Of a stretch of 64,000 nt of DNA, positions 36,446-46,313 are shown piece after piece; positions within the stretch are counted from its first letter, which is position 1; each line of letters opens with the position of its first letter. The DNA is from a virus. The DNA lies in IMG/VR virus record IMGVR_UViG_3300021088_000005, positions 36,811-100,810 of that record; one strand, 5' to 3'. The notes under the pieces are model-generated. The model was given only the letters and a program-made list of their open reading frames with translations. It did not search any database and was not told the DNA's origin. The position numbers and the translations under genes were made by a program.

Positions 36446-37111
36446 TTAGATAGTTCCTCGACGCTTCATATCTAGTATCAAAGCGATTACTTGTTCTTTT
36501 GAAAGTCCTGGACCTGGGATTCCCTGTTCGCCTTCTGGACCCTGAGGACCTATCGGTCCTTGTGACCCCGACTCACCTTGAGGACCCTGCGGTCCTGCTT
36601 CTCCGCGCAGTCCTTGCTCGCCCTGCGGACCTTGTATGCTCAATCCTGTAGGGCCTTGTAACCCTTGAGGACCCTGCGGTCCTGCTTCGCCTTGAGGTCC
36701 TTGAGCGCCAACTGGTCCTTGAGGTCCTGGAATATCGGAAACTCCTGGCTCTCCCTGCGGACCTTGTAATCCTTGTTCTCCCTGCGGACCTTGATCGCCA
36801 TCGCGACCGTCTTTTCCGTCTACTCCGTCGCGACCGTCGCGACCTGCTGGTCCTGTGTCACCTTTTGGCCCTGGCACTGTGCTGTCTGAGCCGGTCGCTC
36901 CGGTTTCGCCCTTCTCGCCGCGTTCACCGCGAAGACCTTGCGGTCCAGGAATGTTAGAAACCCCCGGCTCACCTTGTAGACCTCGTGGACCTTCAAGACC
37001 TCTTCGAGAGTCTCTGTGTCTGTGCAGGTCATTTACTGCTGTTTCAAGTCTTGAGATTCGTTCGTCTAAAGTTAAATCCACAGTATCATCTCCAAATCCA
37101 TCCGCAGACAC
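36446..37111 (-). CDS. Collagen triple-helix repeat protein
   Basis: About 50 Gly-X-Y triplets (GPQGEQGLQ...) after a short coiled coil. Confidence 0.9.
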
Positions 37112-37190: not shown

Positions 37191-38948
37191 TTATGAGCCA
37201 CTTGCGACTCCGTTGTGATCCAGAATATAAACTACATTGCCGCTGTTAGGAACGACTACGTGAACGATGTCTAGCAATGACGGGTTTGTGAATGCATCAG
37301 CGAACAACTGAGCAATTGTTGCCCCGCTGGTTAGGCGTGTGAAATACTGGCCTAGTCTGACCCCATTCGACGGAGTGAAGGACGCAGCAATGGTGGCGGT
37401 AGCAGCATGAGTTTCTGCTGTCTGCGTGGTCTCGGCTACAACTATGGTTGTGGCCGTGCTTGAGATTACAAGAACACTCGATACATTGTTGCCGCTGCTA
37501 GTGAAACCAGTAACTGTTATGAAACGACCAGCAAGACCGTTGGACGCACCGTTCGTTATGGTTCCGGTATATGTGGCCTTGTTGACTCCGGAGATACGAA
37601 CAGTTGCCGCATGCGTTTCAGCCGCTTGGCCCACTATGAAGGTACCAACCAAGGTTGTTGCTGTTGACGCCGTGATAACAAAGCTTACGTTGTTGCCGGA
37701 TGTTGTAAATCCGGCTACTGTCGCAGTAAAACCTACAAATGCGTTAGAAGCACCGCCTGTGATCGTTCCGGTGTAGGTGGTAAGTGATACCCCGGCTATC
37801 TCGGCAGTCGCAGCGTGAGTTTCGTCAACCTGAGTGTTCGGGGTAACCGTGATGGTTGTCGCAGTTGATGCAGTAATAGTGAATGTGCCGTTATTTCCAC
37901 CGTTCACGAAACCAGCGATTACAACCTGCTTACCAGCAAATGCGTTAGAAGCACCACCAGTAAATGTTCCGGTGTAGACACCTGTTGAACCGACAACAGA
38001 TGTGATTGTGAATGACGAAATAGCAACAGAGGTTAGCGCGAAGTCGTCTACCGCGACAGAAGTTAGCGGAGATGTAAACAAAGAACTGGTTGAGACATTG
38101 TGAACTGTTCCGATATTGTCAACCGAAACCAGGATGTCTCCGCCCTCTCCTACAATCTGAAGCAGGTCTAGGTTCTGTGGGCCAACACCGTTAGGGGTAA
38201 CTTGAGGATACGCAGATGGTACGCTTAAGCCGGGCTGAGACGCAATTAGCGCCTGAGCCACTCCGCCAGCAGTTGTTGGGGTGGCTGCGGAAGCAGGGGC
38301 TGTGATGTTTGTAGCTGTCGCGATAGTAACCGCGCCGCTAGACGTGACCAATCCTGCGAGAGCACGGCCCTTCAGGGTGCCGCCTCCCAATGTGATGCTA
38401 GTGTTGGCAAGAATATTACCAACCATGTTAGAAGTACCAGCAAAGATTGAAGTGAAGGAACTTCCTACTAGCCAAACCACGTTTGCAGCCTTAGCGCCAT
38501 TCACAAGCAATACAGACGCACCACTCTCTAAAGTAAGTGTAGAGCCTGCCTTAAAAATAAAAACAGCATTAGGGTTTCCCTGCGCATCTAGGGTAATAGA
38601 TGTCGGGATGTCCATTGATGATCCAGCGGAGTAATTGCCGGGTAGGTATGTGCTAGCCGTCCCGCCATTTCCTAGAGTAGATAGGTTGGCTGAAGACGCA
38701 GACAAAGATGTGAAGGAAAGTGCGGAGAAAGCGTTATAAGCAGTGAGGCCGTCTGCAATAGCTTGCGCGGCGTTTGGGGTATCAACTGCGGCAGGAGGAA
38801 TAAAGATCATCCCGTCCAAAGTATATGTCGCGGTTGGTGACGACCCGACATTGCCACCTGTGATGATGCTAGAGCCTGAGTTAGTAATACCAGCGCCTGC
38901 TAGAATGACATAATTAGCGGCGGTCAACAACTGAGACTGAATAGACAT
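37191..38948 (-). CDS. DUF3494 ice-binding domain protein with C-terminal repeats
   Basis: TAANYVILAGAGITNSG...ITLDAQGNPNAVFIFKAGSTL...NVVWLVGSS...GRALA, then three YTGTxTxGASN...GF...GNN...ETHAAT modules; SD AGGAG before ATG 38948. Confidence 0.85.
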   Translation of the reverse strand: MSIQSQLLTAANYVILAGAGITNSGSSIITGGNVGSSPTATYTLDGMIFIPPAAVDTPNAAQAIADGLTAYNAFSALSFTSLSASSANLSTLGNGGTASTYLPGNYSAGSSMDIPTSITLDAQGNPNAVFIFKAGSTLTLESGASVLLVNGAKAANVVWLVGSSFTSIFAGTSNMVGNILANTSITLGGGTLKGRALAGLVTSSGAVTIATATNITAPASAATPTTAGGVAQALIASQPGLSVPSAYPQVTPNGVGPQNLDLLQIVGEGGDILVSVDNIGTVHNVSTSSLFTSPLTSVAVDDFALTSVAISSFTITSVVGSTGVYTGTFTGGASNAFAGKQVVIAGFVNGGNNGTFTITASTATTITVTPNTQVDETHAATAEIAGVSLTTYTGTITGGASNAFVGFTATVAGFTTSGNNVSFVITASTATTLVGTFIVGQAAETHAATVRISGVNKATYTGTITNGASNGLAGRFITVTGFTSSGNNVSSVLVISSTATTIVVAETTQTAETHAATATIAASFTPSNGVRLGQYFTRLTSGATIAQLFADAFTNPSLLDIVHVVVPNSGNVVYILDHNGVASGS

Positions 38949-38964
38949 GATGCTCCTGAAATAC

Positions 38965-38993
38965 AAAAGCCGCCCAATCTAGGCGGCTTCTTT
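38965..38993 (-). terminator. Terminator ending the RNA array (possibly bidirectional)
   Basis: AAGCCGCC/GGCGGCTT stem with T tracts on both strands. Confidence 0.7.
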
Positions 38994-39006: not shown

Positions 39007-39085
39007 TGGTCGGGAAGGTGGGATTCGGACCCACGTGCTTTCGCTTCCGAAGCGAACGAGATAAGCCAAACTCCTCTACTTCCCG
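39007..39085 (-). tRNA. tRNA-Pro(CGG)
   Basis: TTCGC-TTCGGAA-GCGAA; CCA encoded; T-loop TCCGAAT. Confidence 0.85.
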
Positions 39086-39091
39086 TAAAAT

Positions 39092-39165
39092 TGGTCGGGG
39101 AACTGAGAATCGGACTCAGACCCTACGCTCCCAAAGCGTATGTGCTGCCATAACACTTCTCCCCG
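39092..39165 (-). tRNA. tRNA-Pro(TGG)
   Basis: TACGC-TTTGGGA-GCGTA; A8/U14; T-loop TCCGATT. Confidence 0.85.
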
Positions 39166-39171
39166 ATAAAA

Positions 39172-39936
39172 CTAAAAGAACGAAATTGTTTCTGCTTTCT
39201 CTGGATTAGCCGCGATGAACTTATCGACTGTATTATCCTGTAAGTCATTCAAGAAATCTAGAACACGGTCCGCCGGAGTCACTATATCGTAAGTACCGGA
39301 ATGGAAATCACCGACTGCAATACCGATTAGCGCACGTTCCTTAGCGCTGTAGATTCCGCTTCCACTAGACCCAGGCGCGATAGTCACGTCCATGGGCATT
39401 GTGTGAATCCAAAACGGATACTGCTCAATTATCTCTAGCGGCATGGCTAGGAATGCGGAAGACATGAATCGACCGTAGAATACCTGCTTGCCTGTGCCGT
39501 ACGGGAACGAAACATCAAATATCGGGTCGCCGGACTTTAATCCGCGTTCGTCTTTGATTCGAACTTCCGGGACGCCAGCGCCGTTCCTGATTAGCATCAA
39601 AGCTACATCGTCTGTCAAACTAATCGCAATAGGCATCGCGTCATAGAACGGTCCGCCCTCGTTATCTGAGAAGCTGACCTTCATGCTCTGATTGACGACA
39701 TTCGTGTCCGGGTCTGCTACGCAATGGCGTGCTGTCAAGAAAACACCGTCACCTGTCGAAGTGTGGCCGATTTCTGTGCCGCTGCAATTGAACCTGCGCT
39801 CAGCGCCTACGAATATGGCTCCGGTTGCTGCCCGAGCATCAATCTCGAACGGGTGCCGTGGTGCTCCACTAATCGCTAAGCCTGAGCCTAGGGCGAGTAG
39901 AACGGCTAAAGAAATCACTGCTAGCAACTTCTTCAT
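39172..39936 (-). CDS. Secreted trypsin-like serine protease
   Basis: Signal peptide; CSG, FLTARHC, DDVAL, APGSSGSG triad motifs. Confidence 0.85.
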   Translation of the reverse strand: MKKLLAVISLAVLLALGSGLAISGAPRHPFEIDARAATGAIFVGAERRFNCSGTEIGHTSTGDGVFLTARHCVADPDTNVVNQSMKVSFSDNEGGPFYDAMPIAISLTDDVALMLIRNGAGVPEVRIKDERGLKSGDPIFDVSFPYGTGKQVFYGRFMSSAFLAMPLEIIEQYPFWIHTMPMDVTIAPGSSGSGIYSAKERALIGIAVGDFHSGTYDIVTPADRVLDFLNDLQDNTVDKFIAANPEKAETISFF

Positions 39937-39961
39937 AGACTACCAACTCATTCGCAATACT

Positions 39962-40018
39962 TGGCGGAGCACTTATGCGAATGCATGCCGTTCGCTTATT
40001 GGAGCGAGCCTCTGCTCG
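39962..40018 (-). ncRNA. CCA-terminated tRNA-like small RNA (about 57 nt)
   Basis: GAGCA/TGCTC stem, two inner hairpins, ends GCCA. Confidence 0.45.
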
Positions 40019-40029
40019 GCTTGTAAAAA

Positions 40030-40104
40030 TGGCTGCGAGACTAGGACTCGAACCTAGATGCGCGGCTTCAGAGACCGCTATCCTACCAATTAGATGATCT
40101 CGCA
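40030..40104 (-). tRNA. tRNA-Gln(CTG)
   Basis: GCGGT-CTCTGAA-GCCGC; U1-A72; CCA. Confidence 0.9.
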
Positions 40105-40112
40105 ATAAATTT

Positions 40113-40176
40113 TGGAGGGTAGCCATTTCGTTCCCGCTAGGGCGAAGGGGTCGTTATCACTAGGGCAGTACTACCC
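40113..40176 (-). ncRNA. CCA-terminated small RNA (64 nt)
   Basis: GGGTAG/CTACCC terminal stem plus TCCA; no cloverleaf. Confidence 0.45.
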
Positions 40177-40222
40177 TGCTGTTGTTCCCTAATTACCTGA
40201 CCAACGATTTCACAGATCGAAC

Positions 40223-40298
40223 TGGTTGCCTCGACACGACTCGAACGTGTATAGCGGGATTCAAAGTCCCGCGTCCTACCAAATTAGACGACAAGGCA
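40223..40298 (-). tRNA. tRNA-Gln(TTG)
   Basis: CGGGA-CTTTGAA-TCCCG; CCA. Confidence 0.9.
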
Positions 40299-40304
40299 AT
40301 AAAA

Positions 40305-40376
40305 TGGAGCGAACTACTTACGGATTCGAACCGTCATCCGGTTGGCCTTCCGGATTACACCCTAGTGCGTGTTCGC
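40305..40376 (-). ncRNA. Atypical tRNA-like RNA (8-nt anticodon loop, 5-nt bulge between T arm and acceptor stem)
   Basis: GCGAAC/GTTCGC-TCCA; ATCCGG-AAGGCCAA-CCGGAT; ACGG-TTCGAAT-CCGT-AAGTA. Confidence 0.6.
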
Positions 40377-40382
40377 ATAAAC

Positions 40383-40459
40383 TGGACCAGCAAGTCAGAC
40401 TCGAACTGACTAAGAACAAGGTTGCAGCTTGTCGCCTCGACCGCTTCGGCATTTGCTGG
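40383..40459 (-). tRNA. tRNA-Cys(GCA)
   Basis: ACAAG-CTGCAAC-CTTGT; U73; CCA. Confidence 0.88.
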
Positions 40460-40460
40460 T

Positions 40461-40494
40461 TGGTCGCGGAACCGCCGTGAAGCTAAGTCCCACG
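40461..40494 (-). ncRNA. 34-nt ACCA-terminated minihelix 1
   Basis: CGTGGGAC-TTAGCTTCACGGCG-GTTCCGCG-ACCA. Confidence 0.55.
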
Positions 40495-40496
40495 AT

Positions 40497-40530
40497 TGGT
40501 GCCCCGCCAGGATTGCTCCGAAGCTAGGGC
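40497..40530 (-). ncRNA. 34-nt ACCA-terminated minihelix 2
   Basis: GCCCT-AGCTTC-GGA-GCAA-TCC-TGGC-GGGGC-ACCA. Confidence 0.55.
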
Positions 40531-40535
40531 ATAAA

Positions 40536-40622
40536 TGGCGGATGATGAAGGAATCGAACCCTCTTCACCTTTCGGTGAGGACAGTTTTCAAGACTGCTGC
40601 CCCCCATGGAGCCCAATCATCC
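40536..40622 (-). tRNA. tRNA-Ser(TGA)
   Basis: GCAGT-CTTGAAA-ACTGT; long variable arm; G73; short D arm. Confidence 0.82.
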
Positions 40623-40629
40623 GTAAAAA

Positions 40630-41145
40630 TTAAGTATGAAACACTGTAATCGGCAACCAAGCAACATGGATATCTACTTCAGTCCCGTTGACTGGTGCGG
40701 AACAAGTTGCGCTAACTCCTAGTCCGAATAGAGAAGACTGAACCGTGCTCCACAAAGACAATGGGTTAATTCCCCATAGATCAGTCGAACTACCAAGAGT
40801 ATAAAACTGTGGCTCGTTAGTTAAAGTAACATGTTTTCCGGTTCCGATTGGGTTGCCGTTCAAAGACATGGCAACATACAACTGACCGCTTCCGCCACCT
40901 GGCGAAGCATAGTACGCCCAGAATCCACCTTCAAGACCTGTTACACTCTGCTGCTCAGCTAATGTAAATCCGTATCGCTGACCGAAGACTGCTACCCCTG
41001 TGTTCTGACTACCGCCACTGAACTCTTTGTTCTGAGCGTAATCGCCTGGGGGCGATCCTACGAGACCACCGATATTAGTCCAGAGTACTTCATTACCGTT
41101 TGCGTACTGTACCGAATAGCCTGCGTATGCGCTTTCACTTGCCAT
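40630..41145 (-). CDS. Beta-rich hypothetical protein inside the RNA array
   Basis: SD GGAGG; YTLGSSTDLWG motif. Confidence 0.65.
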   Translation of the reverse strand: MASESAYAGYSVQYANGNEVLWTNIGGLVGSPPGDYAQNKEFSGGSQNTGVAVFGQRYGFTLAEQQSVTGLEGGFWAYYASPGGGSGQLYVAMSLNGNPIGTGKHVTLTNEPQFYTLGSSTDLWGINPLSLWSTVQSSLFGLGVSATCSAPVNGTEVDIHVAWLPITVFHT

Positions 41146-41174
41146 CTAGCCTCCGGCAATGCTAGTTAAAAATT

Positions 41175-41256
41175 TGGCGGAGAACCCCTTGCTAAGACTC
41201 CATGTCGCGTTTCCGCTGCAAGGTCCGCTGAAGCGTGTACCTGTTTAAGGTTCCCC
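41175..41256 (-). ncRNA. CCA-terminated branched RNA (82 nt) with G3-U70
   Basis: GGGGAACC/GGTTCTCC-GCCA; inner GCG-GAAA-CGC hairpin. Confidence 0.5.
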
Positions 41257-41279
41257 GGTCTTTCGACGGTTCTAATGTT

Positions 41280-41365
41280 TGGCGGAGAAGGAGGGACTTG
41301 AACCCCCACATCCTTTCGGATGCGAGTTTAGCAAACTCGTGCGTCTACCATTTCGCCACTTCTCC
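41280..41365 (-). tRNA. tRNA-Ser(GCT)
   Basis: CGAGT-TTGCTAA-ACTCG; long variable arm; CCA. Confidence 0.92.
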
Positions 41366-41374
41366 GTATTCAAC

Positions 41375-41666
41375 TGGTGACCAATAGCCAGGGTTCTGTC
41401 CAGCGCTTTCACGCTTGAACTGTCATTCGTCTTCGCTTCCAACCCGACCTTCGTCACGCTCAACAAGCGCTCTGGTCCTATTTGGAATTGCACCTACAGA
41501 GAGTCACTTCGCTCGAATGACCTATATGACGGTTGTTAAGTTTCTAATCGACCGCTATATGGGTACGAAGCCTTACTAGTCCGGTTACCCGGCCCGCAAC
41601 TTCCACGGTGTAGTGTTGAGATGTGCCCTGAACTTCCTCGGTTTCCCGCGACAGTTTAGGTCACCA
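41375..41666 (-). ncRNA. rnpB: RNase P RNA (type A-like, no P18, divergent S-domain)
   Basis: CR-I GAGGAAGTTCAGGGCAC and CR-V ACAGAACCCTGGCTA form P4 with bulged U; P1 TGGTGACC/GGTCACCA; P2 ACTGTCG/TGACAGT; P3; P5 GCAC/GTGC; P6 CTCAACA/TGTTGAG; P7 CTACA/TGTAG; P15 TTCC/GGAA; CR-IV AGACGAAT; P19. Confidence 0.9.
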
Positions 41667-41675
41667 AACTAAAAC

Positions 41676-41752
41676 TGGACGACCTGACTGGACTCGAACC
41701 AGCAAACATTTGTTTAGGAAACAAAGCCCCGATCCTTTCGGGGAACAGGTCG
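41676..41752 (-). tRNA. tRNA-Arg(CCT)
   Basis: TTTGT-TTCCTAA-ACAAA; CCA. Confidence 0.85.
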
Positions 41753-41756
41753 AAAC

Positions 41757-41831
41757 TGGAAGGCCGTAACGGAATCCAACCGTTGTCTCCCCGTTAGAAG
41801 CGGGGCGCATTTTGCACTATACTAACAGCCC
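41757..41831 (-). tRNA. tRNA-Arg(TCT)
   Basis: CCCCG-CTTCTAA-CGGGG; C19-G56. Confidence 0.85.
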
Positions 41832-41837
41832 ATAAAT

Positions 41838-41912
41838 TGGCAGGGGAAGAGAGATTCGAACTCCCATAACTGGTTTTGGAGACCAGAGTCCTAGCCGTTG
41901 GACGACTCCCCT
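41838..41912 (-). tRNA. tRNA-Trp(CCA)
   Basis: CTGGT-CTCCAAA-ACCAG; G73. Confidence 0.92.
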
Positions 41913-41917
41913 ATAAA

Positions 41918-42035
41918 CCTTTCCGATGTCACTTTCTCAGATCGCAGGCGCGTGACTGGCCGTGTCACAGTCCTTTGGGCTCGCGTGATCTGCTACGTTA
42001 GGCGATCATCGGTGCTAGTTTTCAAGGCTAGCAGG
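41918..42035 (-). ncRNA. Unknown structured RNA between tRNAs
   Basis: GCTAG/CTAGC, CCGATG/CATCGG, CAGATC/GATCTG, GTGAC/GTCAC stems. Confidence 0.45.
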
Positions 42036-42039
42036 AACT

Positions 42040-42113
42040 TGGAGCGACTGACGTGACTCGGACACGTTTCTCTGGATTGGAAGTCCAGGGCACAACCTAT
42101 ATACCACAGTCGC
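42040..42113 (-). tRNA. tRNA-Gly(TCC)
   Basis: CTGGA-CTTCCAA-TCCAG; U73; T-loop TCCGAGT. Confidence 0.88.
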
Positions 42114-42119
42114 AAAACT

Positions 42120-42194
42120 TGGAGCGGCTGACGGGAAATCGAACCCGTACCTGAACCTTGGCAAGGTTCCGTACTACCACTATACTACAGCCGC
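42120..42194 (-). tRNA. tRNA-Gly(GCC)
   Basis: GAACC-TTGCCAA-GGTTC; 8-nt T-loop. Confidence 0.9.
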
Positions 42195-42195
42195 A

Positions 42196-42271
42196 TGGTC
42201 GCTGTGGCTGGATTCGAACCAGCTATACCCGCCTTATGAGAGCGGTGCTTTTCCGGTTAAGCTACACAGCG
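42196..42271 (-). tRNA. tRNA(CAT), elongator Met or Ile2
   Basis: CCGCT-CTCATAA-GGCGG; paired 1-72. Confidence 0.85.
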
Positions 42272-42277
42272 TAAAAT

Positions 42278-42350
42278 TGGTTGCAGGGGTAGGAGTCGAA
42301 CCTACGTAAGCAAGTTTATGAGGCTTGCCTGAATCCCATTCTCCTCTGCA
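42278..42350 (-). tRNA. tRNA(CAT), possibly initiator-like, reduced D arm
   Basis: CTCATAA loop; TGCAG/CTGCA-ACCA; D arm GAAT-GGG-ATTC. Confidence 0.7.
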
Positions 42351-42358
42351 CAGAAATT

Positions 42359-42442
42359 TGGTGCGCGATGAGGGATTTGAACCCCCACGAGTTTCCCCAA
42401 TAGTTTCTAAGACTATCGTGTCTGCCGTTCCACCAATCGCGC
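42359..42442 (-). tRNA. tRNA-Leu(TAG)
   Basis: ATAGT-CTTAGAA-ACTAT; long variable arm. Confidence 0.92.
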
Positions 42443-42448
42443 AAAACT

Positions 42449-42524
42449 TGGTAGGGATGGAGAGATTCAAACTCTCGTCACTTGGCTTGAAGGGCCAGTA
42501 TCATTATCGCTAGACCACATCCCC
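42449..42524 (-). tRNA. tRNA-Glu(TTC)
   Basis: TGGC-CCTTCAA-GCCA; C33; A19-U56. Confidence 0.8.
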
Positions 42525-42530
42525 AAAACT

Positions 42531-42604
42531 TGGTCGCGCTGCGGGGAATCGGACCCCGGTTACACGGATGAGAACCGTGTGGCTTGCCACTAACCGACAA
42601 CGCG
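42531..42604 (-). tRNA. tRNA-Glu(CTC)
   Basis: CACGG-TTCTCAT-CCGTG; T-loop TCCGATT. Confidence 0.85.
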
Positions 42605-42605
42605 A

Positions 42606-42680
42606 TGGCGGAGATACCGGGGATCGGACCCGGACTTTACCCGTGACAGGGGTACGTCGTTACCAACTGACCCTATCTCC
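42606..42680 (-). tRNA. tRNA-Asp(GTC)
   Basis: TACCC-CTGTCAC-GGGTA; G73; T-loop TCCGATC. Confidence 0.85.
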
Positions 42681-42681
42681 G

Positions 42682-42755
42682 TGGAGCACCATAAAGGAAT
42701 CTAACCTTTTCTTCCGCTTTACCAAAGCGGTGGACTAACAATATCCTAATAGTGC
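42682..42755 (-). tRNA. tRNA-Thr(GGT)
   Basis: CCGCT-TTGGTAA-AGCGG; U19-A56. Confidence 0.85.
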
Positions 42756-42760
42756 GAAAC

Positions 42761-42834
42761 TGGAGCAGCGTCTGAGAATCGGACTCAGGCCAGCGGTTTA
42801 CGAAACCGCGATCATACCACTAGACCAACGCTGC
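42761..42834 (-). tRNA. tRNA-Thr(CGT)
   Basis: GCGGT-TTCGTAA-ACCGC; T-loop TCCGATT. Confidence 0.87.
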
Positions 42835-42839
42835 AAAAC

Positions 42840-42914
42840 TGGAGCACAATCGAGGAATCCAACCTCGGCTTCCGAGGTACAAGCTCGGCGTCATAGGCGC
42901 TAGACCAATCGTGC
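42840..42914 (-). tRNA. tRNA-Thr(TGT)
   Basis: CCGAG-CTTGTAC-CTCGG; C19-G56. Confidence 0.85.
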
Positions 42915-42920
42915 TTACAA

Positions 42921-43009
42921 AGGCTGGGGCAGCAGGATTCGAACCTGCAATGTGCTTACGCACTGTCTGGGTAACGGCCAGATGCTGTACCGGATTGAGC
43001 CACACCCCA
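42921..43009 (-). tRNA. tRNA-Asn(GTT) with long variable arm
   Basis: TCTGG-CCGTTAC-CCAGA; GTGC-GTAA-GCAC variable hairpin; G73; ends CCT. Confidence 0.78.
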
Positions 43010-43489
43010 ATAAAGTCTATCTTCTTCCTCTGCGTGGCAGTTAGCGCAGAGTAAATCACACTTATCTAATTCTAATTCTAATTTTACTTTTTCCCAGGCT
43101 ACAGTTTCTGGGCGCGATATAGCAAATTCTTTTTCTCCAGGTTCTCTATGATGAAATTGTAGTGCTCTTACACACTTACAGTACCCGCACTTCATGCACT
43201 TCCTGCCGAGATATTCAACAGCTCTCTGCTTTATATCTCTACGCCAGTCCATGACTCTTTTACTTACCGCTTTTCTCTTACGGTTAGCGGACTGTTCTTT
43301 CTTTATATTTCTGCACTCATCACTACAATAACTTAATACTGTCCGAATTGCCTTACCGCAAATCTTACAAGACCCTTCTGGTTTCCTCTTAGGAAAACGA
43401 TTGATATTGTTGTTCGCAGAATTGGCACACGTCTTAGAACAATATTTAGGATTGTCTGTGAGTACACCACATCCGTTACATGGGTGCAT
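42956..43489 (-). CDS. HNH endonuclease with Zn-finger repeats, 3' end overlaps tRNA-Asn
   Basis: CMKCGY...ALQFHH...KCDLLCANCHAEE. Confidence 0.88.
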   Translation of the reverse strand: MHPCNGCGVLTDNPKYCSKTCANSANNNINRFPKRKPEGSCKICGKAIRTVLSYCSDECRNIKKEQSANRKRKAVSKRVMDWRRDIKQRAVEYLGRKCMKCGYCKCVRALQFHHREPGEKEFAISRPETVAWEKVKLELELDKCDLLCANCHAEEEDRLYWGVAQSGTASGRYPDSA

Positions 43490-43522
43490 TCTAGTCTCCT
43501 AGTTTTAACTTCTAAACAAAAA

Positions 43523-43598
43523 TGGAGACCCTGGAGAGATTCCAACTCCCGACGCCCACGTTCGAAGCGTGGCGCTCTGTGCGCTGAGCTACAGGGTC
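43523..43598 (-). tRNA. tRNA-Arg(TCG)
   Basis: CCACG-CTTCGAA-CGTGG; C19-G56; A20. Confidence 0.87.
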
Positions 43599-43608
43599 AA
43601 ACTAATCA

Positions 43609-43764
43609 TCAGCGAGGAAACCTACGAATCAACTCCAACTGATGTGTTTCATCTTGGTACCAAACATGAGTGTCCATGTACTTCTTAGAATACCAAAGCA
43701 TAATAGGTAACGGGACCAACCAATAAATCCAAGGTCTCCATGACCAATATATTTTACTCTTCAT
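43609..43764 (-). CDS. Small Trp-rich membrane peptide
   Basis: MKSKIYWSWRPWIYWLVPLPIMLWY; ATG 3 nt after a tRNA CCA, no SD. Confidence 0.4.
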   Translation of the reverse strand: MKSKIYWSWRPWIYWLVPLPIMLWYSKKYMDTHVWYQDETHQLELIRRFPR

Positions 43765-43767
43765 ATC

Positions 43768-43843
43768 TGGTGATCCTATGTGGACTCGAACCACAGCATC
43801 GAGCTTCGCAGGCTCGCACTCTTTCCATCTGAGTTATAGGACC
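43768..43843 (-). tRNA. tRNA-Arg(GCG)
   Basis: CGAGC-CTGCGAA-GCTCG; A20. Confidence 0.88.
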
Positions 43844-43912
43844 ATAAACTTTTAGGGTTACGATCCCTCAACGGCTGCTTATTTCCGGTCTACAGCAAGA
43901 CGATCATTAAAC

Positions 43913-43987
43913 TGGTACGCCGCCGAGGAGTTGAACCTCGCTCTTCCGGGTGTAAACCGGGTGCATCTGCCGATCTGCCAGCAGCGT
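43913..43987 (-). tRNA. tRNA-Val(TAC)
   Basis: CCGG-TTTACAC-CCGG; A73. Confidence 0.85.
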
Positions 43988-43988
43988 A

Positions 43989-44052
43989 TGGTGGAGTCGG
44001 TGTGCCACGGTATCCCGGAAGGTTCTACCTTCTGTAGGTCTTGCCGTGCTCC
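43989..44052 (-). ncRNA. CCA-terminated small RNA (64 nt)
   Basis: GGAG/CTCC-ACCA, CACGG/CCGTG, GAAGGT/ACCTTC. Confidence 0.45.
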
Positions 44053-44138
44053 ATAATGTCCGGCGCGGATTGCATGTTGCTCCGCGTCGTCCGATGTGTC
44101 AGATAGTTCGTTGTATACTATCTCACACATCGTAAAAT

Positions 44139-44212
44139 TGGTGTAGGCGAAGGGAATCGAACCCTCAAATTCTCGGTGCAAGCGAGACAGTTTCCCGTTA
44201 GCTTACGCCCAC
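44139..44212 (-). tRNA. tRNA-Ala(TGC)
   Basis: TCTCG-CTTGCAC-CGAGA; G3-U70; A73. Confidence 0.9.
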
Positions 44213-44219
44213 ATAAAAT

Positions 44220-44293
44220 TGGTAGTCGGCCAGTGACTCGAACACTGATCTCACGTTAATCGGACGCGGGTCCTACCTTTGAACGAGCCGACT
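44220..44293 (-). tRNA. tRNA-Ile(GAT)
   Basis: CGCGT-CCGATTA-ACGTG; unusual C33 and U37. Confidence 0.78.
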
Positions 44294-44411
44294 ATAAACT
44301 TTACCGCTACACTTCTTCATATGAAACCAAAGAGCATCAGCCGGATTTATCTTGGCTGTTATCTCTTGCCCACATTTACTGCATCGAAGTACGCGTAGCT
44401 TTGACATAAAC

Positions 44412-44500
44412 TGGTGGAGAAGGAGTGAATCGAACACTCTACGTCTCAAGGACGGTTGGTTTTACAGACCAATGCGACTCTCCAACTTCGCCGCTTCTCC
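44412..44500 (-). tRNA. tRNA-Tyr(GTA)
   Basis: TTGGT-CTGTAAA-ACCAA; long variable arm. Confidence 0.9.
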
Positions 44501-44506
44501 AAAACT

Positions 44507-44582
44507 TGGTGGGACATGACGGGCTCGAACCGTCAACCGACTCCTTAAAAGGGAGCTATGTTGCCACTAACACCTATGTCCC
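44507..44582 (-). tRNA. tRNA-Lys(TTT)
   Basis: GCTCC-CTTTTAA-GGAGT; A8/U14. Confidence 0.88.
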
Positions 44583-44588
44583 GAAACT

Positions 44589-44663
44589 TGGTGCGCCTCC
44601 CGTGAATTAAACACGGTCCCGACGGGTTAAGAGCCCGCTGTGCTATCGTAACACCTGAAGCGC
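44589..44663 (-). tRNA. tRNA-Lys(CTT)
   Basis: GCGGG-CTCTTAA-CCCGT; A8/U14; A19-U56. Confidence 0.85.
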
Positions 44664-44673
44664 AAAACTTAAT

Positions 44674-44770
44674 AACCTGTGGAGGAATCGAACCTCTACT
44701 GACATTAGCGCGTAGACGTTATCGGTCAGCAAGCACCCGAGGTATCTACGTACCCGCCGTGCTCACGGTC
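44674..44770 (-). ncRNA. tRNA-shaped RNA with kissing loops, no CCA
   Basis: T arm GAGG-TTCGATT-CCTC; loops CGTAGA and TCTACG complementary. Confidence 0.55.
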
Positions 44771-44771
44771 T

Positions 44772-44858
44772 TGGTGCGCTGCCCCGGATTTGAACCGGGA
44801 CGGGGTTTAGTCCAGCGGGTTTTAAGTCCGCTATGTCTGCCTGTTCCATCAGCAGCGC
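44772..44858 (-). tRNA. tRNA-Leu(TAA)
   Basis: GCGG-ACTTAAAAC-CCGC; long variable arm. Confidence 0.9.
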
Positions 44859-44867
44859 AAAATCATA

Positions 44868-44936
44868 GATGGCGTCCTATCCGTTAGACGATACACGCCG
44901 ATAGCATGCACCGGGACTCGAACCCGGATTTCCACC
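44868..44936 (-). ncRNA. Circularly permuted, anticodon-less tRNA (YrlA Y-RNA-like)
   Basis: Order: GGTGG, AAAT, T arm, TGCATGC, TATCG loop, GCGTGTA, D arm, CCATC. Confidence 0.8.
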
Positions 44937-44941
44937 TTACT

Positions 44942-45035
44942 TGGTAGTCTCGAAGAGATTCGAACTCTTATCGCGCCCCAATCTAGGGCTTATCCAGTTT
45001 ATAAGGCTGGCGCTCTGCCGTTGAGCTACGAGACT
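44942..45035 (-). tRNA. tRNA-Ile(TAT) with long variable arm
   Basis: CCAG-CCTTATAAA-CTGG; GCCCT-AGATT-GGGGC variable hairpin; A73. Confidence 0.82.
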
Positions 45036-45041
45036 AAAATC

Positions 45042-45136
45042 TTGAACCTTCCCGAGCTTTACTAGCGTGACACTCGGTCTTGATTAACAAGTCGTGCCTT
45101 CCACGCTAGCGGTTGCACGATCAATGAACGGTTCAA
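45042..45136 (-). ncRNA. Unknown multi-stem RNA with 8-bp kissing loops
   Basis: TTGAACC/GGTTCAA; TCGTGC/GCACGA; CCGAG/CTCGG; loops CTAGCGTG/CACGCTAG. Confidence 0.6.
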
Positions 45137-45142
45137 ACTTGA

Positions 45143-45229
45143 TTCGGGACCCGGCATCAACCTTCCCAGGAAGTGCCACGTCGGTTAGAAGCTTGACACT
45201 TACTACCAACGTCGTCAAGGTTTCCCGAA
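45143..45229 (-). ncRNA. Unknown pseudoknotted RNA
   Basis: TTCGGGA/TCCCGAA; CTTGAC/GTCAAG; ACGTTGGT/ACCGACGT; GGCA/TGCC; CTTCC/GGAAG. Confidence 0.55.
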
Positions 45230-45232
45230 AAC

Positions 45233-45317
45233 TGGTGCGACAGAGGGGAGTTGAACCCCTATGAGACAAGCTCGGCGGTTTTTGAGACCGCTGCGTATGC
45301 CATTCCGCCACTATCGC
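45233..45317 (-). tRNA. tRNA-Leu(CAA)
   Basis: GCGGT-CTCAAAA-ACCGC; long variable arm. Confidence 0.92.
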
Positions 45318-45385
45318 ATAATCTTTAGGGCTCTTAGCCCAAGGTAAGACTTCATCCATGTAGGAGAAGCTTTCTTACCTAAACT

Positions 45386-45460
45386 TGGTCCGGACTCACG
45401 GAATTGAACCGCGTACGCCCACCTCTTCAGGGTGGCGCTCTACCGATGAGCTAAGCCCGG
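45386..45460 (-). tRNA. tRNA-Phe(GAA)
   Basis: CCACC-CTGAAGA-GGTGG. Confidence 0.9.
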
Positions 45461-45468
45461 ATAAAATA

Positions 45469-45639
45469 GTATTCATCGTGACAAACGTCTTAAGCCGGAT
45501 GCCTTCGTCACAACGGGTGACCAGCCATATAGAGTTCACGCCCCACCGGGGAATGACTCTAGTCTAAGCAAACTCACCAGATTGGCCTGCGCAAGCCTTA
45601 GCATCTCTCCGGCAAGAAGCAAGTCTCGATTACAAATAC
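45469..45639 (-). ncRNA. 6S RNA-like rod (about 170 nt)
   Basis: End-to-end hairpin ATCG/CGAT, GAC/GTC, TCTT/AAGA, GCCGGA/TCCGGC, central bubble, GGTGA/TCACC, TAGAGT/ACTCTA, CCCC/GGGG. Confidence 0.5.
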
Positions 45640-45668
45640 ATTGTACCACAACTTTCGAATCTTGTCAA
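45640..45668 (-). promoter_or_regulatory. Sigma70-type promoter for the RNA array
   Basis: TTGACA-17 nt-TACAAT with extended TG. Confidence 0.85.
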
Positions 45669-45987
45669 GCGATTTCTTCGACCATCTCAAGAAATATTTC
45701 CATCGCTTCGATCATTCTGCTGCGCCCAAACTCGTCAGCCAGGACATAAACCTCAGCGTCGGACATCTTGCTTGTTATGACTACGCCGTCTTCCAGGGAT
45801 GTCCACACCATCGGTTCCTCCACCCGCCTGGGGGTTGGACCCGGCGGACAGAATCTAATCCAGTGGCGGAGAAAGGATCGTAACCGCTACGCCGGACGCT
45901 CTTATGAGCACACTGGAAACTTTGGGTGGCTGATTGCGCTCTGACAGCCGAAGTTTCAGCGTATGTTTCAGCGTATGTTTCTAATTT

Positions 45988-46063
45988 TGGGGTGTCCCGC
46001 CGGAATCGGACCGAGCGCTACAGGATTCACAGTCCCGTGTGCTTCCATTACACCACGGACACC
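45988..46063 (-). tRNA. tRNA-His(GTG)
   Basis: CGGGA-CTGTGAA-TCCTG; G-1:C73; T-loop TCCGATT. Confidence 0.85.
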
Positions 46064-46077
46064 ATCGATCTAGATAC

Positions 46078-46106
46078 ATTCTATCACAACTTCTAAAATC
46101 TGTCAA
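46078..46106 (-). promoter_or_regulatory. Sigma70-type promoter at the start of the RNA array
   Basis: TTGACA-17 nt-TAGAAT with extended TG; shares GAA(A)GTTGTG spacer sequence with the 45640 promoter. Confidence 0.85.
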
Positions 46107-46113
46107 GCTTTAT

Positions 46114-46293
46114 TTACAGCTTTGCTTTGACTGCTGCAACTAGTGCCTTTACTTCGGCTACTGTAGATGCTTCGACCTTGGCTAGCTCTGCGCGAACTGC
46201 GGCAAGCTTGCCTGCGTTCTTAACTCTTCCGCCTGCAAAACCCAATGCCAAACTAACAATGACTGTAATCGCAACGTAAGCCAAGTGTACCAT
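46114..46293 (-). CDS. Small membrane-anchored protein (59 aa)
   Basis: Manual translation MVHLAYVAITVIVSLALGFAGG...; SD GGAG. Confidence 0.55.
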   Translation of the reverse strand: MVHLAYVAITVIVSLALGFAGGRVKNAGKLAAVRAELAKVEASTVAEVKALVAAVKAKL

Positions 46294-46313
46294 AATCGGG
46301 TCTCCGTGTCAAG

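Follow-up and report, generated by a model that had tools for sequence, protein, structure and literature searches.

RNase P RNA is regarded as a housekeeping ribozyme of cells and organelles, and its bacterial type A form (RF00010) is represented by Escherichia coli M1 RNA (rnpB) and the P RNA of Thermotoga maritima. In type A RNAs, the GGU of loop L15 binds the 3'-CCA of the substrate, and in bacterial holoenzymes helix P3 lies in the protein-binding neighbourhood. Reduced forms are also known: the RNase P RNA of Mycoplasma fermentans has no P12, and the type T RNA of Pyrobaculum is almost devoid of a specificity domain (S-domain). In characterized enzymes, a pair of interdigitated T-loops in the S-domain stacks on the tRNA elbow (PMC4810234, PMC4919913), and a contact between L18 and P8 has been described (PMC8457005). 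Here we report that a 64,000-nt stretch of viral DNA (the window; bases 36811-100810 of the 100,810-bp IMG/VR virus record IMGVR_UViG_3300021088_000005) contains, inside a tRNA operon, a gene that by its homology and fold is a type A RNase P RNA gene in a viral setting and has a distinctive reduced architecture.

Phage tRNA sets are thought to replace host tRNAs that are depleted or attacked (PMC10264068, PMC11555353). Accounts of huge phages list tRNAs and transfer-messenger RNAs (tmRNAs) and no RNase P RNA (PMC7162821, PMC8172020), and an Rfam run on megaphages in one study returned only tRNAs and a tmRNA. No viral RNase P RNA appears in two RNase P gene finders, a huge-phage survey, or an IMG/VR structured-RNA survey, and our full-text literature search, from whose reach subscription-only literature was excluded, brought up no account of one in a phage or other virus. 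Like the tRNA arrays and tmRNAs, the RNA in the window is a translation housekeeping RNA carried by tRNA-rich phages; it differs from them in being, by its family, a trans-acting ribozyme that matures other RNAs.

A cmsearch run with the RF00010 (RNaseP_bact_a) model, the check proposed with the initial annotation of this DNA, gave a full-length match (model positions 1-367) of 72.7 bits, with E values of 3.7e-22 on 601 nt and 1.5e-23 on the whole record. The score does not reach the curated gathering threshold of the family (100 bits), and the match is missed at the default threshold. Descent of the phage RNA from bacterial type A RNase P RNA is supported. It has in common with this family, represented by the E. 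coli and T. maritima RNAs, P1 to P12, P15 to P17, the P4 and P6 pseudoknots, conserved regions CR-I, CR-IV, and CR-V, A248 in J5/15, the L15 GGU, the L8 and L9 loops, and the order of the helices (Table 1). In contrast to type A RNAs, the window RNA is viral, is located in a tRNA operon with no accompanying rnpA, is 298 nt instead of 377 nt long, lacks P13, P14, and P18, has a P3 of 3 bp, and has a GG...UUCRA module in place of CR-II and CR-III. The initial annotation, made from the letters alone, had described a phage-encoded RNase P RNA with a complete catalytic domain including both pseudoknots, without P18, without canonical CR-II and CR-III, and without a visible rnpA. This description is borne out: every element that it named in the catalytic domain was found, and both pseudoknots covary.

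The fold is proven by covariation among phage relatives, which were gathered via two phage proteins, a DNA pattern (i.e., the positions invariant in the first seven copies), and a metagenome collection. Fourteen clade members were aligned with MAFFT, blind to structure, and tested against an explicit structure containing P4, P6, and one tertiary pair. Paired cells amounted to 94.1%, against 35-39% when the 3' partners were slid by 1-3 columns; compensatory change on both sides was seen in 53 of 73 pairs; and the covariation score was 0.543, against 0.06-0.10 in the slid controls. None of 500 shuffles reached any observed value. All five pairs of P6 were compensatory (91% of cells paired), P4 was 98% paired with three covarying pairs, and P15, P16, and P17 were 95-100% paired, likewise with covariation. 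Independently of Rfam, RNAalifold recovered P3, P4, P7-P12, and P15-P17, with compensatory change in 35 of 60 pairs. The low pairing of P1 (64%) arises only because MAFFT displaces the 3' strand of this helix by a column; a direct alignment gives 5-10 contiguous, obviously compensated pairs, e.g., UGGCAGUC/GACUGCCA and UUGGUUGUCC/GGACGACCAA. A scan for covarying columns outside the helices left three clean cases, namely, a further P4 pair, the base of P12, and RNA positions 97 and 153, which are treated below. Besides, RNA positions 203 (L17, window 41465) and 241 (CR-IV, window 41427) covary (U-A in 7, C-G in 6, and U-G in 1); position 203 also belongs to P6, and this covariation may represent a base triple or shared ancestry.

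Alignment to E. coli showed conservation of the M1 RNA nucleotides G61-A66, U69, A248 and A249 (the adenines of J5/15), C253-G260, G292-G293-U294 (CCA binding), and A347-A352. The P4 pseudoknot between CR-I and CR-V comprises 8 bp and the bulged U36, P5 is present, and the L15 sequence CGGGU, which aligns with E. coli G292-U294, is invariant in all 14 clade members. In almost every clade member, the 3' strand of P1 terminates in CCA, facing a 5' UGG, and the flanks of the RNA resemble tRNA leaders and trailers, hinting at tRNA-like trimming of its ends.

At P18, the covariance model aligns no nucleotide of the window RNA with 24 consensus nucleotides, and only 4 nt lead from P15 to CR-IV. This helix, whose GNRA loop docks into P8, is absent from 10 of the 14 clade members; a short P18 is kept in L137, L194, and L183, and a longer one in L161, a distribution indicating that P18 was lost within the phage lineage. 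Without P18, the L18-P8 contact is lost as well. Among the 11 clade members with a P19-like hairpin, 7 have it capped by a GNRA loop. L137 and L194, which have a mini P18 with a GAAA loop, lack this hairpin, and L142 lacks both elements. It is possible that the hairpin may act as a substitute for the lost L18 contact.

The S-domain shows remodelling and no decay: P8 is present, P9 has a GNRA loop, and P10, P11, and P12 covary strongly. A string search of the window S-domain found neither ACAGARA nor GUGAAA; the model uses a local end over 105 consensus positions of this domain, and GUAAGG and CAUUCGAG replace CR-II and CR-III. Every clade member has (R)GUAAG-S ahead of P11 and (U)CAUU-S-RAG following P12, even L142, in which P12 itself is missing. 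RNA positions 97 and 153 connect these two motifs. In the 14-member alignment the pair is G-C in 11 members and C-G in 3, and in 10 further nonredundant clade members from metagenome and genome collections, which took no part in proposing the pair, it is G-C in 8 and C-G in 2, i.e., 19 and 5 in total with no exceptions. On a maximum-likelihood tree, at least two of the swaps are independent (on well-supported branches), and the best estimate is four. Position 165 (window 41503) is C where 97-153 is G-C and A or G where it is C-G, and may join the tertiary pair as a third partner.

The position of this pair accords with the anatomy of a T-loop, in which the base at position 3 is Watson-Crick paired to a distant one (PMC4810234). 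RNA 153 occupies the third place in the pentamer U-U-C/G-R-A, U151 and A155 of which are invariant, and RNA 97 follows an invariant G, so that the module in the window is arranged like G18-G19 and T54-A58 of tRNA. With the double T-loop motif of RNase P (J11/12-J12/13), the ribosomal L1 stalk, and T-box stem I, it shares UUCRA with a distant pair and a nearby GG; it differs in that one pentamer is recognizable here instead of two (PMC4810234, PMC4919913), and its three-dimensional form and elbow contact are inferred. The sequences thus indicate that the clade keeps one selected T-loop-like module in place of two interdigitated T-loops. The S-domain carries the signature of a selected substrate-recognition module that was altered, not lost, and it probably still docks the tRNA elbow. 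The initial annotation had proposed an elbow-insensitive RNase P; with P7-P12 kept, the motifs invariant, and the T-loop-like motif retained with its covarying 97-153 pair, that proposal is not supported.

Reduced RNase P RNAs exist in cells, and two groups were compared with the phage form. Among 185,579 species genomes, 14 show the P18-less pattern of the clade. Thirteen are scattered metagenome-assembled genomes (Bdellovibrionales, Bipolaricaulota, Kiritimatiellia, Planctomycetota, and others) that share the absence of P18 and the spacing from J15 to CR-IV; unlike the phage RNA, all 13 keep canonical CR-II and CR-III (ACAGARA and GUGAAA) and sit outside tRNA arrays, with 0-4 tRNAs within 8 kb. 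The fourteenth, L219 (CABMCB010000059.1, 99,937 bp, "uncultured archaeon isolate LFW-28"), has 21 tRNAs in 8 kb and phage-type motifs, and on these grounds we take it for a phage contig, apparently of this clade, misbinned into an archaeal genome. The reduced candidate phyla radiation (CPR) RNAs (PMC8172020) resemble the phage RNA in losing peripheral helices (P12, P13, P14, and P18) while keeping the catalytic core and in needing detection thresholds below that of Rfam. However, a CPR RNA is the sole essential RNase P RNA of its cell and has its protein partner in the genome, the CCA-binding motif kept by the phage RNA is missing from two-thirds of the CPR RNAs, and the phage RNA has a replacement S-domain module of its own.

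The S-domain with GUAAG...AUUCRAG was seen only in tRNA-array (phage) contigs and occurs in none of the 13 cellular P18-less RNAs. Likewise, among metagenome contigs, all matches in tRNA arrays had AUU(C/G)RAG and lacked the pair of CR-II plus CR-III, and all matches without tRNAs carried both. Six related phage records, one of them a complete 111.6-kb genome with terminal repeats, gave full-length matches of 78-103 bits in tRNA arrays and on the tRNA strand; clade relatives as a whole score 66-127 bits. A more general pattern allowing P18 matched 52 further viral contigs, about 35 of them in tRNA arrays. RF00010 matched at full length in all 40 further tRNA-array records scored, and thus in 46 of 46 when the six close relatives are counted; 34 of the 40 exceeded the curated cutoff. 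The 40 include records of 463, 456, 332, and 177 kb that CheckV rates 100% complete and records of 176.5, 109, and 102 kb with terminal repeats. Copies in complete genomes with terminal repeats are those of G008, G020, G034, and G046. Standard annotation misses the reduced forms because their scores fall below the Rfam cutoff.

Some of these phages show further peculiarities. In a 360-kb phage (L188; G043:C1:19454-20103), the RF00010 match (118 bits) extends over 650 nt, suggesting an insertion of ~300 nt, and in two large-phage contigs a tmRNA gene is located within ~1 kb of the RNase P RNA (L196, 636-993; L202, 11520-11873). A 109-kb phage with terminal repeats (L141/L151) represents a separate P18-less lineage, with an RNA of 276 nt (126.8 bits) that keeps the CR-II/III-like strings CAACAGUGA and AGUGAAAC; 41% of its tRNAs lack U55. 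A loose pattern, GAATG...ACAGAACCC, was discarded, as it produced 119 or more chance matches, of which only the window locus passed a CR-I filter. By blastn against deposited phages, neither the window RNA nor a huge-phage copy had a match. A near-consensus phage copy gave six partial matches, to unannotated faecal contigs, prophage-like contigs, and a misfiled Salmonella contig; no annotated phage RNase P RNA was among them.

The record that contains the window is derived from a soil metagenome and is 95% complete according to CheckV. The window encodes a major head protein, a portal, and a large terminase; the nearest cultured relative of the terminase is that of Tunturiibacter phage Tunturi_3 (25% identity), in which RF00010 had no match. 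The RNase P RNA occupies a gap of 310 nt between two genes of the tRNA operon. Its position is syntenic in 10 of 14 relatives, and the downstream tRNA is 1-6 nt away in 7 of 14. A 3'-CCA is encoded by 31 of the 32 tRNA genes of the array, in agreement with the L15 GGU that the RNA retains, and the pre-tRNA leaders read RUUUUAU. A promoter scan by consensus matches found strong candidates at the operon head only and none directly before the RNase P RNA. Exact contigs over 41422-41647, 41426-41647, and 41355-41627 were present in three of four soil metatranscriptome runs, and in run X11 the RNase P RNA contig was the deepest exact phage contig (11.4). These contigs carry no strand, ends, or level, and DNA carry-over is possible, so they are no more than a weak hint and do not count as evidence of expression; two of them end at 41647, which may be due to assembly-graph branching, and a relative with a different P12 was found in one of the three positive runs.

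The sequences show homology, the fold, purifying selection, conserved catalytic and CCA-binding nucleotides, the operon context, and the absence of rnpA; we infer that the RNA is catalytic, that it uses host RnpA, how it matures, and how the phage benefits. It is probable that the phage owns an active RNase P RNA gene that is cotranscribed with the tRNAs and whose product works on phage pre-tRNAs with host RnpA. The RNA would be transcribed within the polycistronic tRNA operon, and its ends would probably arise from the cuts that set the adjoining tRNAs free. The folded RNA would then cleave the short U-rich 5' leaders of the phage pre-tRNAs, acting on the array together with host RnpA. Since many spacers are only 1-7 nt long, one RNase P cut would also part adjacent tRNAs, and the array would therefore rely heavily on RNase P capacity. 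The benefit may be a processing capacity matched to the burst of phage tRNA synthesis; alternatively, the phage may be freed from reliance on a host RNA whose synthesis has ceased or which is degraded. Some points weigh against this interpretation: the window RNA scores 72.7 bits, below the curated Rfam cutoff; its P3 has shrunk to 3 bp; and the L18-P8 contact and the double T-loop platform are both missing, so its activity could be weak or need conditions that the sequence does not foretell.

Table 1. Features of the RNase P RNA gene and its operon (window coordinates)
Feature	Position	Strand	Remarks
Phage RNase P RNA gene	41370..41667	-	298 nt as aligned to RF00010; covariation
P1 5' strand UGGUGACC	41659..41666	-	Pairs with GGUCACCA at 41375-41382
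P2	41650-41656 / 41418-41424	-	Both strands
P3	41639-41648	-	3 bp, GAAA cap
CR-I GAGGAAGUUC	41630-41639	-	G departing from consensus A takes part in a covarying pair
CR-I and P4 5' strand GAGGAAGUUCAGGG	41626..41639	-	Bulged U36; E. coli G61-A66 and U69 conserved
P6 5' strand CAACA in J5/7	41614..41618	-	Pairs with UGUUG in L17 (41461-41465)
Specificity domain	41494..41613	-	Reduced to P7-P12, without P13 and P14
J10/11 UAAGG	41571..41575	-	G96-G97 is the D-loop-like GG; G97 pairs with C153
P12 hairpin	41520..41564	-	~14 bp in the window RNA, 3 bp in L146 and L137, none in L142
Invariant CAUUCGAG	41512..41519	-	Holds T-loop-like pentamer U151-U152-C153-G154-A155
P15-P16-P17 module	41437..41487	-	J15/16 AAAUAGG; L15 GGU at 41442-41444
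Linker GCGA (4 nt) where P18 would be	41433..41436	-	Between P15 3' strand and CR-IV
CR-IV AGACGAAUG	41424..41432	-	RF00010 alignment (consensus AGAYGAAUG)
P19-like hairpin AGCGU-GAAA-GCGCU	41402..41415	-	Between P2 3' strand and CR-V
CR-V and P4 3' strand ACAGAACCCUGGCU	41386..41399	-	E. coli A347-A352 conserved
CR-V proper ACAGAACCC	Within 41386..41399	-	RF00010 alignment
tRNA operon	39007..46062	-	32 of 33 phage tRNA genes; many spacers only 1-7 nt
tRNA-Arg(CCU), upstream	41676..41752	-	CCA end 8 nt before RNase P RNA
tRNA-Ser(GCU), downstream	41280..41365	-	Starts 4 nt after aligned RNase P RNA end
Three sigma70-like promoters	45640..46312	-	10-11 of 12 consensus matches, extended -10 TG; operon head

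Pfam and PHROGs matches in or beside the tRNA block comprise a trypsin-like peptidase, an HNH endonuclease, an ice-binding-like protein, and a collagen-repeat protein. The HNH homing-endonuclease gene is located within the array (42956-43489), with related copies at varied places in the arrays of relatives. Just downstream of the block, 37191-38966 and 36446-37111 encode a 591-aa ice-binding-like protein (PF11999, 120.7 bits) and the collagen-repeat protein. Several tRNAs of the array have unusual elbows: four (41757-41831, 42682-42755, 42840-42914, and 43523-43598) have compensated 19-56 swaps, three with a UUGGA T-loop and GC in the D-loop and one with UUAGA and GU, and seven others have C for the near-universal U55 (T-loop UCCGA).

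A specialized, or orthogonal, RNase P whose S-domain has coevolved with such odd-elbow tRNAs, a refinement of the idea in the initial annotation, would favour, or be required for, phage pre-tRNAs that are poor substrates of the host enzyme. It could coexist with processing of the phage array by the phage RNA and host RnpA, and we consider this additional specialization doubtful. The swapped and C55 tRNAs of the window and the restriction of the GUAAG...AUUCRAG S-domain to phages speak for it, as does the mitochondrial RNase P without the T-loop pair, which co-occurs with elbow-less tRNAs (PMC4810234). Moreover, non-U55 tRNAs make up 13.4% of those in the clade versus 2.1% in phages with canonical S-domains (Fisher P, 4e-6), although tRNAs of related phages are nonindependent samples; the corresponding difference for non-C56 tRNAs (7.5% versus 3.4%) is not significant (P, 0.08). 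About 80% of the clade tRNAs have canonical elbows, the L141/L151 lineage with its CR-II/III-like strings has the most odd elbows, and known enzymes stack on the elbow, reading its shape more than base identity (PMC4810234). The link between the S-domain and odd elbows is thus only suggestive. A still broader scheme can be imagined, in which tailed phages with large tRNA operons possess an RNase P ribozyme of their own and, in this soil-phage clade, the RNA forms a self-contained orthogonal tRNA-maturation device that is cut from the very transcript that it processes, uses any host RnpA or none, and has a single-T-loop S-domain coevolving with odd elbows, so that phage tRNAs would mature preferentially or independently of the host enzyme; we put this forward as a tentative and rather unlikely possibility.

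PF00825 (RnpA) had no match in the entire 100.8-kb record, even at an E value of ≤10, nor in 20 other phage records with RNase P RNA (completeness of 90% or more in 11), under a search that was positive in control genomes. The absence of visible rnpA pointed out in the initial annotation thus extends beyond the window. Since the phage encodes no RnpA, its RNA most likely pairs with that of the host. The same absence from all 21 phage records would also be expected if the RNA worked without host RnpA, either acting in vivo as an RNA-only ribozyme or relying on an unrecognized protein cofactor encoded by the phage, and phages of wide or uncertain host range would gain by not needing a cognate host protein. 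We nevertheless judge this quite unlikely, because bacterial RNase P RNAs in general need their protein at physiological ionic conditions and no candidate cofactor stands out. There is no conserved small basic open reading frame (ORF) beside the gene; the 171-aa ORF next to it is acidic (pI 4.5) and has no counterpart in relatives, the remaining small ORFs occur sporadically, and Pfam and PHROGs revealed no RNA-binding or tRNA-processing protein in the block.

The lack of rnpA, together with the conservation of the protein-proximal CR-IV, CR-V, and P15 region, would also suit a decoy, i.e., a catalytically unimportant RNA that soaks up host RnpA or pre-tRNA-binding factors and stops host tRNA maturation. 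The initial annotation had considered such sequestering of RnpA, which is disfavoured because all features of the catalytic core stay under selection. A decoy needs neither the bulged U of P4, P6, the CCA-binding GGU, and A248 nor a selected S-domain, all of which are conserved or covarying, and a block of RNase P would also stop the maturation of the 33 tRNAs of the phage itself; we therefore hold the decoy to be highly improbable. Finally, carried-along host DNA, an assembly chimera, or a decaying pseudogene, as might be suspected from the score below the Rfam cutoff and from some IMG/VR and INPHARED matches that have no tRNAs nearby and look like host flanks, is refuted in practice by pervasive compensatory substitutions, by synteny inside tRNA arrays in at least 14 phage contigs including complete genomes with terminal repeats, and by an S-domain type that no cellular genome among 185,579 species has, save the one misbinned phage contig.

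The phage RNA and its relatives offer a ready series of natural variants of 260-330 nt, without P18, P13, and P14, with a variable or absent P12, and with a new conserved S-domain module. Such a series is suited to asking which parts of the ribozyme serve substrate recognition and the use of a foreign protein subunit, and compact RNase P RNAs that fit densely packed tRNA arrays may help cell-free tRNA-array expression systems (PMC12381190). With a viral RNase P RNA, the translation-related genes known from phages would come to include a catalytic RNA, and it would show that tRNA-rich phages secure the maturation of tRNAs as well as their supply.

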